Source: an uncultured Candidatus Saccharibacteria bacterium
Lineage (GTDB): Bacteria > Patescibacteriota > Minisyncoccia > Phycocordibacterales > PALSA-1337
Direction of reading: 5' to 3'
DNA length: 64,000 nucleotides
Assembly: GCA_964558375.1 (NCBI GenBank)
Contig: CAZLCD010000003.1
Coordinates: 155 to 64,154, forward strand
Below, piece by piece: positions 3,882 to 64,000 of the stretch. Numbering within the stretch: position 1 is the first letter of the stretch; the number at the start of each line of letters is the position of its first letter. Both the position numbers and the translations under genes were made by a program. A model generated the notes under the pieces. It was not told the DNA's origin and searched no databases. It saw only the letters and a list, made by a program, of their open reading frames with translations.

Positions 3882-3952
3882 TAAGGAGATATCGCCACAG
3901 AGCCCTTTTCGAGAGTTATCCACAAGTTCTTAAGATTTGATAAAGTTTTTGT

Positions 3953-3983
3953 AAAAATATCCCCTTGTGGGGATATTTTGTTT
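3953..3983 (+). terminator. intrinsic terminator hairpin (AAAATATCCCC-TTGT-GGGGATATTTT followed by GTTT)
   Basis: Perfect 11-bp inverted repeat with a 4-nt loop and a T-rich tail, 70 nt downstream of the pyk stop. Confidence 0.5.
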
Positions 3984-59956: not shown

Positions 59957-61384
59957 ATGATCGACTTGTCTACATTAACAATTAAAAAAGCTCACGAAGC
60001 TTTGAAAAAAGGTGAATATTCTTGTGTAGAACTGACACAAAGATATCTTGAAGAAATAGAAAAGCAAAATAAAGAAATAAACGCCTATCTCGAAGTTTTT
60101 CCCGATGCTATTAGACAAGCCGAAGAAGCCGATAAAAGATTTAAAGATGGCACTGCTACTATCCTTACTGGAATCCCTTTTGCTATCAAAGATAATATTT
60201 TAATAAAGGGTAGAATCGCGAGCTCGGCCTCAAAGATTTTGGAAAATTATCACGCAAGTTATGATGCAACTGTTATAGAAAAACTGAGGGTGGCAGGTGT
60301 CGTTTTTTTGGGTAGAACCAATATGGATGAATTTGCAATGGGAGGGTCTACAGAAAACTCTGCTTTTGGAGTTACAAAAAATCCTCATGACACATCAAGG
60401 GTGGCGGGTGGATCTTCAGGTGGATCATCTGCGGCTATGGCTATGAATGGAGCATTGGCAAGTCTAGGATCTGATACTGGAGGGTCTGTACGTCAACCTG
60501 CTAGTTTCTGTGGTCTTGTGGGTCTAAAGCCAACATACGGCGCAGTCTCTCGTTATGGTGTGATGTCTATGGGATCTTCTTTGGATCAGATAGGTCCTTT
60601 CGGTAAAACTGTAACTGATACAGAAATTATCTTCGATGCTATCTCCGGGCAAGACATAAAAGATAGCACGACTACTCCAAAAGAAACCTTTCAATTGAAA
60701 AATTATGACAAAAAACCTGTGATCGGTGTACCTAGGGATTTTTTTAAAGGAGATGGGATAGATAAAGATGTGATTTTAAATTTTAATGAATCTGTAGAAA
60801 AATTAAAAACACTTGGATACGAAATCAAAGATATTTCTTTGCCAAATATTTCATATTCCTTACCTGCCTATTATGTGATTATGCCAGCTGAAGTTTCTTC
60901 AAACCTAGCACGCTTCGATGGTATGCGTTTTGGTCTTCATAAGGATGGCAAAGATGGCATAGACGATTATTTTGAAACTCGAGGAATAGGTTTCGGCAAA
61001 GAGGTTAGAAGAAGAATTTTACTAGGAACTTATGTGCTTTCGTCAGGGTATTATGATGCATATTACAATCGTGCAAATACTGTTAGAAATATTATCACCG
61101 ATGACTTCGTGAAAGCTTTTGAAAATGTTGATATAATACTAACACCTACAACTCCTGCGCCAGCATTCAAGATAGGTGAGAAAACTTCCGATCCTGTAGC
61201 AATGTATCTTGAGGATATATTTACTGTAACTGCCAACCTTACTGGTATGCCAGCCATTTCTATTCCTTCTGGTTTCAGTGAAGTTTCAGAAAAAAAGCTT
61301 CCACTAGGGATACAGATGACTGGCCGCCACGGAGAAGAGAAAACTTTATTTGATGTAGGTAAAGAATTTTTGGGAGAAAAGTAG
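59957..61384 (+). CDS. gatA: Asp-tRNA(Asn)/Glu-tRNA(Gln) amidotransferase subunit A (amidase signature family)
   Basis: Amidase signature GGSSGGSSAAMA…GSDTGGSVRQPASFCG with the Ser-cisSer-Lys triad context. 475 aa. Confidence 0.9.
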   Translation: MIDLSTLTIKKAHEALKKGEYSCVELTQRYLEEIEKQNKEINAYLEVFPDAIRQAEEADKRFKDGTATILTGIPFAIKDNILIKGRIASSASKILENYHASYDATVIEKLRVAGVVFLGRTNMDEFAMGGSTENSAFGVTKNPHDTSRVAGGSSGGSSAAMAMNGALASLGSDTGGSVRQPASFCGLVGLKPTYGAVSRYGVMSMGSSLDQIGPFGKTVTDTEIIFDAISGQDIKDSTTTPKETFQLKNYDKKPVIGVPRDFFKGDGIDKDVILNFNESVEKLKTLGYEIKDISLPNISYSLPAYYVIMPAEVSSNLARFDGMRFGLHKDGKDGIDDYFETRGIGFGKEVRRRILLGTYVLSSGYYDAYYNRANTVRNIITDDFVKAFENVDIILTPTTPAPAFKIGEKTSDPVAMYLEDIFTVTANLTGMPAISIPSGFSEVSEKKLPLGIQMTGRHGEEKTLFDVGKEFLGEK

Positions 61385-61407
61385 AGAAATAAAGAGAAAA
61401 ATAAAAA

Positions 61408-62007
61408 ATGCAAGACACACCAATAGAAGTTATAACAACCCCCACTATCGATATCCAATCTTATCTAGAAATAGCGATCAACTTTTTTGTTGGCCATTTC
61501 CCTAGTTTTATAAATTTTCTAAAATCTACTATAGGTATTTTAATCGGCGTTTCTATACCGCTCTCCGTTATCCTATTTATAGGGATTATTATTGCCGTTG
61601 AAGGTCTCAAGTCAATTAGAAAAAAGGAGGAGAAAGCCTTAAGTGCAAAAGTTGATATGGGTTATGAAGAAAAAGCAAAGGGTAATCATGATATGGCTAA
61701 TAAATGGCAAAATGTTTTGACACACGTAGAATCCGTTAATCCCAATGATTGGAGGCAAGCGATAATCGAAGCGGATATTTTACTTGGAGAAGTGCTAACA
61801 CATCTTGGATATAGAGGAGAGGGTATCGGAGAGCAATTAAAAAGGGCAAATAAGGCTGATTTTGTAACCCTAAATGATGCTTGGGAGGCTCATAAAGTTC
61901 GAAATGAAATTGCTCACAGTGGCTCAGATTTTCCTCTTACCCAGATCGAGGCTCGACAAGTCATCCATAAATACCGCAAGGTTTTCGAGGAGTTTTTCTA
62001 TATTTAA
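61408..62007 (+). CDS. hypothetical membrane protein (two N-terminal TM helices plus soluble C-terminal domain)
   Basis: ORF with hydrophobic N-terminal third and a charged C-terminal domain. No motif recognised. Confidence 0.35.
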   Translation: MQDTPIEVITTPTIDIQSYLEIAINFFVGHFPSFINFLKSTIGILIGVSIPLSVILFIGIIIAVEGLKSIRKKEEKALSAKVDMGYEEKAKGNHDMANKWQNVLTHVESVNPNDWRQAIIEADILLGEVLTHLGYRGEGIGEQLKRANKADFVTLNDAWEAHKVRNEIAHSGSDFPLTQIEARQVIHKYRKVFEEFFYI

Positions 62008-62062
62008 TTTGATTTTAAATTGCACATCACATTTGCGCATCTTACTACTTGTGTGTTAATAT

Positions 62063-62134
62063 GGTTATCTATAGCGGGGTAGAGTAACAGTAGCTCGTCA
62101 GGCTCATAACCTGAAGATTGTCGGTGCAATTCCG
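62063..62134 (+). tRNA. tRNA-like element with CAU anticodon, non-canonical (possible divergent tRNA-Met/Ile2 or pseudogene)
   Basis: Folds as a cloverleaf. Acceptor AGCGGGG/CTCCGCA (A1·A72 mismatch, one G-U). D-stem GAGT/GCTC with a 7-nt D-loop lacking GG. Anticodon stem TCAGG/CCTGA with loop CTCATAA (U33, CAU, A37). 5-nt variable loop. T-stem GTCGG/CCGAC with loop TGCAATT (G at position 55). No encoded CCA. Confidence 0.3.
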
Positions 62135-62220
62135 ACCTCCGCAACAATCAAGAGGTGCTATTGACTTATATTGCATGATATGTTATACTATGTGGGTAGT
62201 ACCTTTACATAGTGAACTTT

Positions 62221-62264
62221 GTTACAGCTTTAAGGGCATTTGCCTGTGCTTTTGAAGCTGTAAC
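62221..62264. repeat. perfect 10-bp inverted repeat GTTACAGCTT…AAGCTGTAAC (24-nt loop) just upstream of ORF 62300
   Basis: Read directly from the sequence. Could be an operator or an RNA hairpin in the 5' leader of the downstream ORF. Confidence 0.4.
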
Positions 62265-62299
62265 AAAACGTTTCAGCAAACAAAACAAAGGAAAAAGTT

Positions 62300-62806
62300 A
62301 TGAAATTAAGTTCTGATGCAGTTGCATTCCTCCAGATGACGCAGGTTGCCTTAACAAATATTGCTACTAAATATCTCAGTTGTTTTGACAACACAACAGA
62401 GAAACAGTTAGCGGAGGCAAAAATTGCCGGGATGATTGTCGGAGAGACGGAATTGTTTTTTGAAGAAAGAGGTTTGGTTCAAAGAGAGAAAGTCGGTTGT
62501 ATTGAATTTAGGGGCTTCACCCTTAAAGGACAATTGATGAATGGAAACTCTTTTGAATCATACGGGTTTGTAGGTAGGAAGCATGGGAAAGAAAGATGGT
62601 GCTCACTTGGAGTCAGTATTAAAATCACTGATCACGAGTTAGAGGAATCTTTAGCAAGTGGTGCTTTCATTGTTGGGGGTAATCCTAATGATGATCATCA
62701 TACTTTTCTAAGTTATTGTGATGAAGAAGTTCCTTTTCGTCTTTGTCAGATGGCAAATGAGAAGAGGAGGGATTTTGTCCAATGGCTTCTAGAGTGTGAA
62801 AATTAG
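62300..62806 (+). CDS. hypothetical protein (168 aa), compositionally GC-richer than surrounding genes
   Basis: Clean ORF preceded by GGAAAAAG (Shine-Dalgarno-like). Codon usage visibly richer in G/C than neighbours. Several Cys/His (CSLG…HH…C…C). No family recognised. Confidence 0.35.
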   Translation: MKLSSDAVAFLQMTQVALTNIATKYLSCFDNTTEKQLAEAKIAGMIVGETELFFEERGLVQREKVGCIEFRGFTLKGQLMNGNSFESYGFVGRKHGKERWCSLGVSIKITDHELEESLASGAFIVGGNPNDDHHTFLSYCDEEVPFRLCQMANEKRRDFVQWLLECEN

Positions 62807-62941
62807 TAGGTTAATATGCACCATCGTTAGTTAAGTTAATTGTCGGTGTGAGTGTTTTTGTACTTTGTTTCGGTTACTTGAAATGGAAGTTCACTTTTGT
62901 GAATAGGAAAAAAGAAAGTAACCGCGCAGTCTGCAAAGATC

Positions 62942-63712
62942 GTGCGGTTTAATTTTGTCTATTTATATACTCATGATATAGTGTCATATAACATGAATTC
63001 TAAAAGACACTTATTAAATAAAGTTATACAAGATAGAAAAACTGGAATGTCTCTGGGTGATCTGTCTAAGAAGTATAAGATTTCTAAAAGCACCGTTAGC
63101 TTATGGTGTAATGATATTAAACTTTCAAATAAAGTAAAACTCCTCATAAAAGAAAACTGGCTTATAAAAACTACTTCAGCACGTGCGAAAGGTACAATCA
63201 AAATTAAGCAGAAAAGAATAGATAGTATAGAAAGGGAATATATAGAAGCAAAGAAAATAATTAATACTTTAAGTGACAGAGACCTATTGATCATGGGTGC
63301 TGCTCTGTATTGGGCAGAAGGTAGTAAAAAGGAAACAGGATCAGGATTCAGCTTTATAAATTCAGACCCTCTTATGATTAAGATTATGTATAAATGGTTG
63401 ATAAAGATTATGAATATCAAAAAAGATCAATTAACCATTAACTTAGCCATAAATATAGTTCACAAAGAAAGAGAAAAAGAAATATTGAAATTTTGGTCAA
63501 ATCTGCTAGACTTCAACTTGGGAGCTTTTGGTAATACCACTTTCATAAAGACACCCCATTTGAGGATGTATGATAATCATACAAACTATTTTGGTATGTT
63601 GCGTATCAAAGTTAAATCAAGTTCTTGGTTGAGAAGAAGAATTTTGGGTATGATCAAAGTTTTTACCAAAGAAGCCGACGTAGCTCAGGTGGCTAGAGCA
63701 TCGCACTCATAA
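62942..63712 (+). CDS. LAGLIDADG-type homing-endonuclease-like protein with N-terminal helix-turn-helix region
   Basis: LLIMGAALYWAEGSK resembles the LAGLIDADG/…YWxEGS dodecapeptide variants. N-terminal HTH-like LSKKYKISKSTVSLW. The last ~13 codons of the ORF are read from the 5' half of the downstream tRNA (the stop lies in its anticodon loop), so the real C-terminus is probably shorter. Confidence 0.4.
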   Translation: MRFNFVYLYTHDIVSYNMNSKRHLLNKVIQDRKTGMSLGDLSKKYKISKSTVSLWCNDIKLSNKVKLLIKENWLIKTTSARAKGTIKIKQKRIDSIEREYIEAKKIINTLSDRDLLIMGAALYWAEGSKKETGSGFSFINSDPLMIKIMYKWLIKIMNIKKDQLTINLAINIVHKEREKEILKFWSNLLDFNLGAFGNTTFIKTPHLRMYDNHTNYFGMLRIKVKSSSWLRRRILGMIKVFTKEADVAQVARASHS

Positions 63713-63747
63713 AGCGAAGGTCCCTGGTTCGAGTCCAGGCGTCGGCA
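63674..63747 (+). tRNA. tRNA with CAU anticodon (elongator tRNA-Met or tRNA-Ile2/lysidine type)
   Basis: Acceptor GCCGACG/CGTCGGC. D-arm GCTC-AGGTGGCTA-GAGC. Anticodon loop CTCATAA. 5-nt variable loop AGGTC. T-arm CCTGG-TTCGAGT-CCAGG. Discriminator A. G1-C72 indicates an elongator rather than initiator. No encoded CCA. Confidence 0.8.
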
Positions 63748-63802
63748 CATTTAATCAAAGACGCTTTGAAATTATACAGAATTATGTATAATAGATCCTA
63801 TT

Positions 63803-63876
63803 GCGATCGTAGCTCAACTGGTTAGAGCACCCGCCTGTCACGTGGGAGGTTACGGGTTCGAGCCCCGCCGATCGCG
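63803..63876 (+). tRNA. tRNA-Asp (GUC)
   Basis: Acceptor GCGATCG/CGATCGC. D-arm GCTC-AACTGGTTA-GAGC. Anticodon stem CCCGC/GTGGG with loop CTGTCAC. T-loop TTCGAGC. Discriminator G. No encoded CCA. Confidence 0.8.
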
Positions 63877-64000
63877 CAGAGAATTAGACAAAGGGACTTC
63901 GAGAGAGGTTCTTTTTCTGTATTTGATTAACTTCAATAAATAGACTATTCTTACCTCTGTGCCGTTGTAGCTGTTTTGGTAGTTAAACCTGATGGAGTGT

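Follow-up and report, generated by a model that had tools for sequence, protein, structure and literature searches.

The window analysed here is a 64,000-nt stretch of contig CAZLCD010000003.1 (assembly GCA_964558375.1) from an uncultured Candidatus Saccharibacteria bacterium, a member of the candidate phyla radiation (CPR). Close to its 3′ end lies ORF239, an open reading frame (ORF) of 239 amino acids (62993..63712, + strand) that runs into the 5′ end of a tRNA gene and is, by comparison with its relatives, homing-endonuclease-like. It stands among three + strand tRNA genes on which ARAGORN and Rfam were concordant: a predicted initiator tRNA (tRNA-fMet, CAU; 62073..62145, Rfam 55.9 bits), which is the upstream landmark of the insertion slot, a canonical elongator-type tRNA(CAU) (63674..63748, Rfam 65.8 bits), which ORF239 abuts, and a tRNA-Asp (63803..63877). 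The latter two had been recognised in this order by an initial annotation made from the sequence alone. The TAA stop codon of ORF239 (63710-63712) corresponds to U36-A37-A38 of the second tRNA(CAU) and so lies in the anticodon loop, as that annotation had also stated. ORF and tRNA overlap by 39 nt, the first 39 nt of the tRNA being the last 13 codons of the ORF. This tRNA is either an elongator Met or Ile2; its D-arm (CAGGUGGCUAGAGC) and T-arm are similar to those of Ile-type tRNAs, and it may be the lysidine-dependent tRNA-Ile2.

The start of ORF239 was assigned to ATG 62993, since MNSK... is the N-terminus of its homologues and a promoter-like TTGTCT-16-TATAGT (62955..62982, + strand), with a TG-extended −10 box at 62977-62982, ends 10 nt before this codon. 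The ORF had initially been read from GTG 62942, which these data replace. ORF239 is AT-rich (GC = 0.30), its codon usage is near that of the genome, and the copy is intact rather than decayed, which had been one of the options raised at first. A terminator-like hairpin (63890..63915, + strand) closes the inferred ORF239-tRNA-tRNA transcription unit. A scan of 61000-64000 against Rfam (E ≤ 10) returned no group I or group II intron and no family besides the three tRNAs. Both CAU tRNAs are contiguous and uninterrupted, such that neither the ribozyme core nor the split host gene of an intron-borne endonuclease was found, and the initial view of ORF239 as a free-standing gene stands.

Filled and empty sites at tRNA 5′ ends

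Metagenomes were scanned for tRNAs identical to 63674-63748 over positions 7-49, which yielded 53 usable loci. An ORF of the ORF239 family was present at 14 of these near-identical tRNAs and absent at 39. The initiator tRNA was found 40-115 nt upstream in 19 of the 39 unfilled loci. In particular, three loci (L114, L116 and L087) are syntenic with the window (gatA-ORF199-tRNAfMet-tRNAMet-tRNAAsp) and have a spacer of 52-65 nt between the two CAU tRNAs, compared with 1,528 nt in the window. Empty sites, which the initial annotation had proposed to seek in related genomes, were therefore found. Its suggestion of a mobile insertion at a tRNA locus is upheld by these three syntenic sites, by cassette exchange and by decayed copies elsewhere.

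Filled and empty loci were interleaved in the GatA tree, and the identity of the ORFs was barely correlated with that of GatA (Spearman rho 0.21, 210 pairs). Loci L119 and L101 share 84% identity in GatA and 78-86% nucleotide identity in the flanks, whilst their ORFs are 36% identical; similarity vanishes exactly from tRNA-Met +1 to tRNA-fMet. The converse is seen for L024 and L135, in which GatA is 60% identical and the ORFs are 75% identical. Broken copies were also present, with a frameshift (L027), in-frame stops (L035, L036 and L052), a truncation (L094) and a split (L112). Polymorphism at a fixed site, tree discordance accompanied by cassette borders, and degenerating copies are the marks of a free-standing homing endonuclease gene, and all three were observed. 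Relatives do carry the ORF in the same place with ordinary base composition, which the initial annotation would have taken to indicate an ancestral, non-mobile gene; the empty sites overturn this indication, as does the fact that the ORF and the host gene give discordant trees.

The family is very large and unnamed. Homologues of ORF239 number more than 200, the family occurs in at least 567 GTDB species representatives, nearly all of them Patescibacteria, and it comprises at least 4,353 cluster representatives (50% identity, E ≤ 1e-3). Approximately 90% of the copies examined end a few bases before, or inside, the 5′ end of a same-strand tRNA. Among 80 genome loci (L001-L080), the stop codon falls between −39 and +76 nt of the start of such a tRNA in about 74. 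Copies in CPR genomes almost always end no more than ~25 nt upstream of the tRNA or within its first 10-39 nt, with the stop placed at tRNA positions 8-10 (the conserved UAG), at positions 13-15 or within the anticodon loop, or else a few nt before the tRNA. The distance from the codons of a conserved LYWAEG motif to tRNA +1 is 360-444 nt, independent of reading phase. The partner tRNAs are Met(CAU), Gln(UUG), Lys(CUU) and Arg(UCG), for which 40, 34, 5 and 1 abutting ORFs were counted, respectively, and two copies can occur at different tRNAs in one genome. Literature searches returned no account of bacterial endonuclease genes placed directly against the 5′ ends of tRNAs.

Inverted repeats of 7-12 bp (GAACnnnnn ... 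nnnnnGTTC) are found around the −10 box at a number of loci (L029 at 3943-3983, L042, L077, L026, L064, L069 and L025), ending 2-6 nt before the ATG of the family gene; they are not found in the subfamily of the window. The inner bases of the repeat vary by locus yet stay complementary. An enrichment statistic for GAAC...GTTC was calculated on hand-selected loci and does not serve as a probability. The repeat may act as an operator or, in the form of an RNA hairpin, prevent the translation of read-through transcripts.

Such repeats are also what might be expected if ORF239 were a vertically inherited helix-turn-helix (HTH) regulator of the tRNA operon, a domesticated LAGLIDADG-plus-HTH protein similar to WhiA, that has been lost where it is now absent. 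The HTH is of the regulator/transposase type, a promoter lies immediately upstream, the inverted repeats bracket the −10 box in some subfamilies, many relatives have the gene at the corresponding place, and its codon usage differs little from that of the genome. However, vertical inheritance is at odds with GatA-sister genomes whose ORFs are 36% identical within sharp cassette borders, with the other pair in which the ORF is more alike than GatA, with the lack of the gene at 39 of 53 near-identical tRNAs, and with the pseudogenised copies. Moreover, paralogues are found next to four tRNA species and within the tRNA arrays of phages, and the nuclease-like motif keeps its acidic and lysine residues at 90% conservation or more across family alignments. 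WhiA itself has two degenerate LAGLIDADG domains without catalytic acids and a C-terminal HTH, and is single-copy and vertically inherited. ORF239 resembles it in pairing a LAGLIDADG-like domain with an HTH, but the Pfam LAGLIDADG_WhiA model has no match to ORF239 or to 45 of its relatives. A regulator of this kind is therefore considered unlikely.

Relationship of ORF239 to homing endonucleases

The AlphaFold model of ORF239 (mean predicted local distance difference test score, pLDDT, of 86) consists of a three-helix HTH (aa ~5-42), a 45-residue helix (aa 46-90) and a C-terminal alpha/beta domain of ~135 aa, which carries LYWAEGSK (aa 105-112; codons at 63305..63328, + strand) and was modelled alone with a pLDDT of 91.8. 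Searches of ORF239 against Pfam, NCBIfam and PHROGs returned weak HTH matches only. The HTH N-terminus proposed in the initial annotation is above threshold in the family consensus (HTH_23, 33.9 bits), but sub-threshold in ORF239 itself (E 0.02-0.13). The conserved motif of the C-terminal domain is L-Y-W-A-E-G-x-K...F-x-N-S-D. LYWAEG is invariant in an alignment of 28 sequences, E and G are invariant in 45 sequences, and Y, E, G, N and D are at least 90% conserved in an alignment of 107.

When the family profile was searched against all PDB sequences, the only match outside HTH domains was the homing endonuclease I-DmoI, with an E value of 5e-3 for a 45-sequence profile that fell to 1.4e-4 for 107 sequences. 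LYWAEGsK is aligned on the second catalytic motif of I-DmoI, LYVAEGDK, the glutamate of which is catalytic (E117). A motif helix with a conserved acid and Gly is therefore probably homologous to that of a solved enzyme, and in both proteins the helix ends ...A-E-G-x-K and is followed by a beta-hairpin and a helix. The predicted second half of the domain is beta-alpha-beta-beta-alpha, as against beta-beta-alpha in LAGLIDADG. ORF239 also differs from I-DmoI and other LAGLIDADG enzymes in its N-terminal HTH and 45-residue helix, and in being borne by neither an intron nor an intein. Like LAGLIDADG enzymes with a single motif, it could act as a dimer, and fused double units exist in the family. 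A profile search for a bridge to annotated LAGLIDADG proteins gave none among the best 150 matches listed, and no GIY-YIG catalytic domain was found in Pfam and PHROG scans of ORF239. Distant LAGLIDADG kinship of the first half of the domain is probable from these alignments, whilst membership of the family is not established.

Eight family proteins of 396-576 aa (P0150, P0166, P0184, P0194, P0209, P0215, P0217 and P0247) contain two complete HTH-plus-domain units, and locus L034 has two family copies in tandem. The double-unit proteins may be fusions, like those behind the monomeric two-domain LAGLIDADG enzymes, or read-through gene calls.

Other nuclease-type ORFs were found in the same niche. 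The spacer between tRNAMet and tRNAAsp in relatives is either ~20-70 nt (93-143 nt from start to start) or ~700-750 nt (770-830 nt); that of the window, at 54 nt (63749-63802), is of the empty form. The long form holds a two-motif ORF (LGFLFADGN...GYFDGDG; ~203-242 aa) that matches Pfam LAGLIDADG_3 with an E value of 1e-13. Its end, MRS* or MRP*, reads AT|GCGATCGTAG, the stop codon being U8A9G10 of the tRNA-Asp. This ORF occurs at L089, L097, L109, L125, L126, L131 and L133, and in decayed form at L093, L099 and L141. In addition, HNH-like ORFs of 120-155 aa precede tRNA-Met (L082, L121 and L137) and tRNA-Thr CGU (L095) and end within the first 10-21 nt of the tRNA. Their matches to Pfam HNH are sub-threshold (E 0.013 and 3.5e-5; none for L121), and the call rests mainly on a CxxC...DH...N...CxxCH motif.

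Distant homologues of ORF239 (22-35% identity) are also present in the tRNA arrays of jumbo phages, some of them flush with the next tRNA. The phage set consists of L143-L154, which are IMG/VR contigs of 21-499 kb (tRNA-array viral contigs of about 45-500 kb). In one of these, L154, the same KSTVSLW-type HTH is fused to a domain with an HNH-like motif, and the ORF overlaps a tRNA-Cys by 15 nt. This recalls enzymes of the I-TevI type, in which a nuclease domain is tethered to a DNA-binding domain that contains an HTH and which repress their own promoter. The likeness lies in the modular combination of an HTH with an interchangeable nuclease domain, and in a promoter that overlaps possible binding sites. 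Unlike the I-TevI type, ORF239 has the reverse domain order and another catalytic domain, and any autoregulation is conjecture only. The convergence of these ORFs on one niche is the strongest indirect argument for regarding the LYWAEG domain as a nuclease module.

The HTH allows a different reading, namely a minimal site-specific transposon or integrase-like element with ORF239 as its only gene, which inserts 5′ of tRNAs by recombination rather than through break repair and has an HTH like those of IS30, resolvase and Sleeping Beauty. The best HTH matches are indeed of transposase and resolvase types (HTH_23, HTH_38, HTH_7 and HTH_SB), the position of insertion is precise, and some tRNAs are preceded by partial duplicates of tRNA 5′ ends. 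However, the ORF is not surrounded by terminal inverted or direct repeats in the window, tRNA positions 1-12 have no second copy upstream at the distance of the ORF, and neither target-site duplications nor tRNA 5′-end copies flanking the ORF were found at that distance. The Pfam search of ORF239 and 45 relatives detected no DDE, serine-recombinase or tyrosine-recombinase domain, the sole similarity outside the HTH is to a LAGLIDADG enzyme, and canonical homing endonucleases occupy the same niche. A transposon of this sort is thus improbable. We regard as very unlikely the proposal that ORF239 is a tRNA-directed toxin or defence module with the neighbouring tRNA as a protected or replacement copy. 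Its linkage to particular tRNA species is strict and homologues do occur in the tRNA arrays of phages, whose tRNAs can counter anticodon nucleases (context in PMC13096335), but the adjoining tRNAs are ordinary chromosomal copies that do not differ between filled and empty alleles, no domain of PADLOC or RNase type was seen, although no search was made with PADLOC itself, and the protein is built like one that binds DNA.

The closest described system is SegB of phage T4, a free-standing GIY-YIG endonuclease encoded in a tRNA cluster, which recognises conserved tRNA-gene sequence and promotes the inheritance of its own gene together with the flanking tRNA genes (PMC2330249). ORF239 is likewise a free-standing nuclease-like gene among tRNA genes, and its family is also present in phage tRNA arrays. 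However, it lacks GIY-YIG and belongs to another protein family, such that the resemblance is functional only, with a putative nuclease activity. It also differs in its host, a cellular CPR chromosome, and in being flush with the tRNA 5′ end, where it and its relatives often borrow the stop codon of the tRNA. The nearest host-matched case is that of the LAGLIDADG endonucleases that CPR bacteria carry within rRNA intervening sequences and in the spacers of rRNA genes (PMC11270868, PMC8172020). These share with ORF239 the host group, a location in a stable-RNA operon and, as proposed for ORF239, an insert that is removed by RNA processing. In contrast, they are canonical LAGLIDADG genes in or between rRNA genes, whereas the site here is a tRNA 5′ edge and the main family is unannotated.

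Taken together, these comparisons make it probable that ORF239 is a selfish gene of the homing-endonuclease-like kind, free-standing and housed in a tRNA 5′ leader. A number of points weigh against this. The case for a homing-endonuclease-like protein is built on comparison throughout. ORF239, 45 relatives and the family consensus have no match to Pfam LAGLIDADG_1, LAGLIDADG_2, LAGLIDADG_3 or WhiA models at E ≤ 1, and so the LAGLIDADG-like block of the initial annotation survives as a conserved GAALYWAEGSK and a family profile that reaches I-DmoI, but fails with all Pfam LAGLIDADG models. An hhalign comparison of the family with the bona fide LAGLIDADG_3 neighbour ORFs was not significant. Foldseek searches of PDB and BFVD with the full-length and domain models gave no significant match and no LAGLIDADG structure, and strands 3 and 4 of the predicted topology are separated by an extra helix. 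With regard to the site, loci L001-L080 were picked for carrying the gene and are a biased sample, and a few copies have no adjoining tRNA (L015, a minus-strand copy in L008 and the second copy in L034). Finally, filled and empty alleles do not differ in the tRNA body, in which a comparison of the two revealed no protective substitutions. The target must therefore include the poorly conserved upstream flank, or self-protection must be otherwise based.

The initiator tRNA and the slot upstream of ORF239

The first CAU element was initially placed at 62063-62134. It is indeed a cloverleaf tRNA, also by its minimum-free-energy fold, but its true position (62073-62145) is 10 nt to the right. The features that had marked it as non-canonical were confirmed by the Rfam alignment: A1·A72, a D-loop (AACAGUA) without GG, and a T-loop (UGCAAUU) with G55. 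The same alignment gives A11:U24. The tRNAs at the same position in relatives read CGCGGGG...CCCCGCAA and have C1·A72, with A1 in several relatives. This acceptor stem is that of bacterial tRNA-fMet (E. coli), and the mismatch at 1:72 and A11:U24 are initiator hallmarks. The CAU anticodon, the lack of a Watson-Crick 1:72 pair and A11:U24 are all present in 62073-62145. Of the three G-C pairs expected in the anticodon stem, two are present (A29-U41, G30-C40, G31-C39), as is likewise the case in most relatives, and initiator tRNAs short of three such pairs occur in some bacteria. On these features of its sequence the element is an initiator tRNA, orthologous to the tRNAs of the relatives, which was one of the options (a third type of CAU tRNA) raised in the initial annotation.

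Positions 18 and 55 were surveyed across 281 distinct tRNAs in the non-phage loci, 268 of which could be scored. G55 was found in 23 of the 268, and all 23 have ..AG.. at the usual place of G18G19; six of them also hold GG, at positions 15-16. Among the 245 tRNAs with U55, none is without GG (Fisher p = 3e-22, even on a crude classification). The A18/G55 variant, with a T-loop of UGCAA or UGCGA, is mostly seen in initiator and elongator CAU tRNAs, plus one tRNA-Thr (L008-L139). A18:G55 is thus a compensated version of the G18:psi55 tertiary pair and not decay, so that a tRNA without G18 and U55 can be a compensated, functional variant.

The initiator tRNA also stands at empty sites, and therefore it is not a relic of the insertion target, the other option initially raised. 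The fuller version of that option, in which the CAU element is a decayed target duplicate or relic and ORF168 and ORF239 entered jointly as a foreign block, is hardly credible: its non-canonical positions 18 and 55 and mismatched 1:72 speak for it, but the mismatch and A11:U24 are initiator hallmarks, orthologues occur at empty sites, A18/G55 covary perfectly in 23 tRNAs, and near-identical strains carry ORF239 and no ORF168.

ORF168 (168 aa; 62300..62806, + strand) lies between the initiator tRNA and ORF239. Three near-identical strains (ORF239 at least 90% identical) have the order ligA-gatC-gatA-ORF199-tRNAfMet-ORF239 with a spacer of ~80 nt before ORF239, compared with ~820 nt in the window, and alignment with L155 and L157 shows that both lack a cassette spanning 62149..62970 (+ strand). 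Since these strains have ORF239 without ORF168, the two did not arrive together, contrary to the initial suggestion that they form one unit. ORF168 was confirmed as an orphan, its only match among 5.8 billion proteins being to itself, and it has no Pfam, NCBIfam or PHROG match. It had also been described as GC-richer than the genome. However, its GC of 0.391 is about one sd above the mean of the window (0.352, sd 0.037) and not an outlier, and its GC3 is 0.33. Its codon score of 0.162 (genome mean 0.276) is the best of six frames and at the bottom of the range of the genome.

The cassette has its own promoter-like TTGACT-17-TATACT 5′ of ORF168 (62161..62189, + strand; TG-extended, 10/12 by consensus match only), a long hairpin in the predicted 5′ UTR (62218..62267, + strand) and a terminator-like hairpin with a T-run 3′ of the ORF (62931..62947, + strand). 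The long hairpin corresponds to the 10-bp inverted repeat noted initially at 62221-62264, which exists but is larger, with 21-nt arms (62218-62238 and 62247-62267), a 13-bp perfect outer stem and a predicted RNA fold of −31.2 kcal/mol (z = −4.5). ORF168 thus belongs to a separate, strain-specific cassette of very recent acquisition, which is unrelated to the nuclease-like element. As judged from these alignments, the slot that separates the initiator tRNA from ORF239 is a hotspot of gene turnover. In farther relatives the same slot contains an unrelated 163-aa orphan (L001, 3299-3790) or a PRTase-like ORF (L002, 3219-3881). The slot was also seen at L120, and each lineage holds a different gene or nothing.

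Two further features flank the locus. Upstream, ORF199 (61408-62007) is conserved and has an N-terminal hydrophobic segment and no Pfam family; the gatA-ORF199-tRNAfMet synteny is common to many Paceibacteria-like genomes. Downstream, 63961-63982, which is cut by the window end, is a recurrent pseudo-copy of a tRNA 5′ end that is also found at L016 (4691), L095 (7021), L125 (3077), L126 (7051), L132 (545) and L134 (2111). The pseudo-copy consists of 7 nt followed by a fixed TAGCTGTTTTGGT where a tRNA would have TAGCTCAGNTGGT, and lies 35-110 nt upstream of a real tRNA. At most of the loci checked (L095, L125/L126, L132 and L134) these 7 nt are those of the acceptor strand of the tRNA that comes next downstream (Thr, Asp or Met). 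Tandem repeats of 96-98 nt with tRNA 5′ ends were seen in L109 and L111. Possible readings of the pseudo-copy are a repair scar, a decoy and a leader element.

Proposed persistence in tRNA leaders

The spacers of empty sites contain a hairpin, a T-run and a −10-like box ~7-17 nt before tRNA +1. The window keeps a hairpin (62931-62947), a T-run and TTGTCT-16-TATAGT directly before ATG 62993. Because promoter elements like those of empty sites precede its ATG, ORF239 seems to be placed between the tRNA promoter and the mature tRNA. As a homing-endonuclease-like gene, it would encode a protein that dimerises via the LAGLIDADG-like helix and binds DNA via the HTH. This protein would cut the empty allele at or near the junction of the tRNA promoter/leader and tRNA +1, and repair from the filled allele would copy the gene in. 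Because the tRNA bodies are the same in both alleles, the target probably spans the junction of flank and tRNA; insertion would split it and thereby protect the carrier.

The insertion would be harmless, as it lies between the tRNA promoter and the mature tRNA, with RNase P removing any 5′ leader. Leader processing would then have the role that splicing has for endonuclease genes borne by introns or inteins. With the −10 box 10 nt before the ATG, the mRNA may be leaderless and co-transcribed with tRNA(CAU) and tRNA-Asp as far as the terminator at 63890-63915. Because the stop codon is inside the tRNA, the RNase P cut would remove it, and the resulting non-stop mRNA could keep expression low.

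It is possible, although we put this forward tentatively, that in CPR bacteria and their phages the 5′ leaders of tRNAs are quite generally a safe refuge for homing endonuclease genes, one not recognised before, with RNase P replacing self-splicing. At least three nuclease lineages would have converged on it, the dominant one, with its thousands of sequence clusters, being a new, highly derived LAGLIDADG-like or novel fold with a shared HTH and subfamilies specialised for tRNA species. If this is true, the leader removed by RNase P would be a third harmless hiding place for selfish nuclease genes, beside introns and inteins, and the family would offer a natural set of enzymes specific for different tRNA-gene junctions, possibly including a new variant of the LAGLIDADG scaffold. 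For annotators, the locus is a warning that ORFs running into tRNA genes here are real and not artefacts. Moreover, thousands of proteins in CPR genomes currently labelled "hypothetical" or "HTH regulator" would gain a name and a testable function, and the variable gene content around the tRNA clusters of these tiny genomes would be explained.

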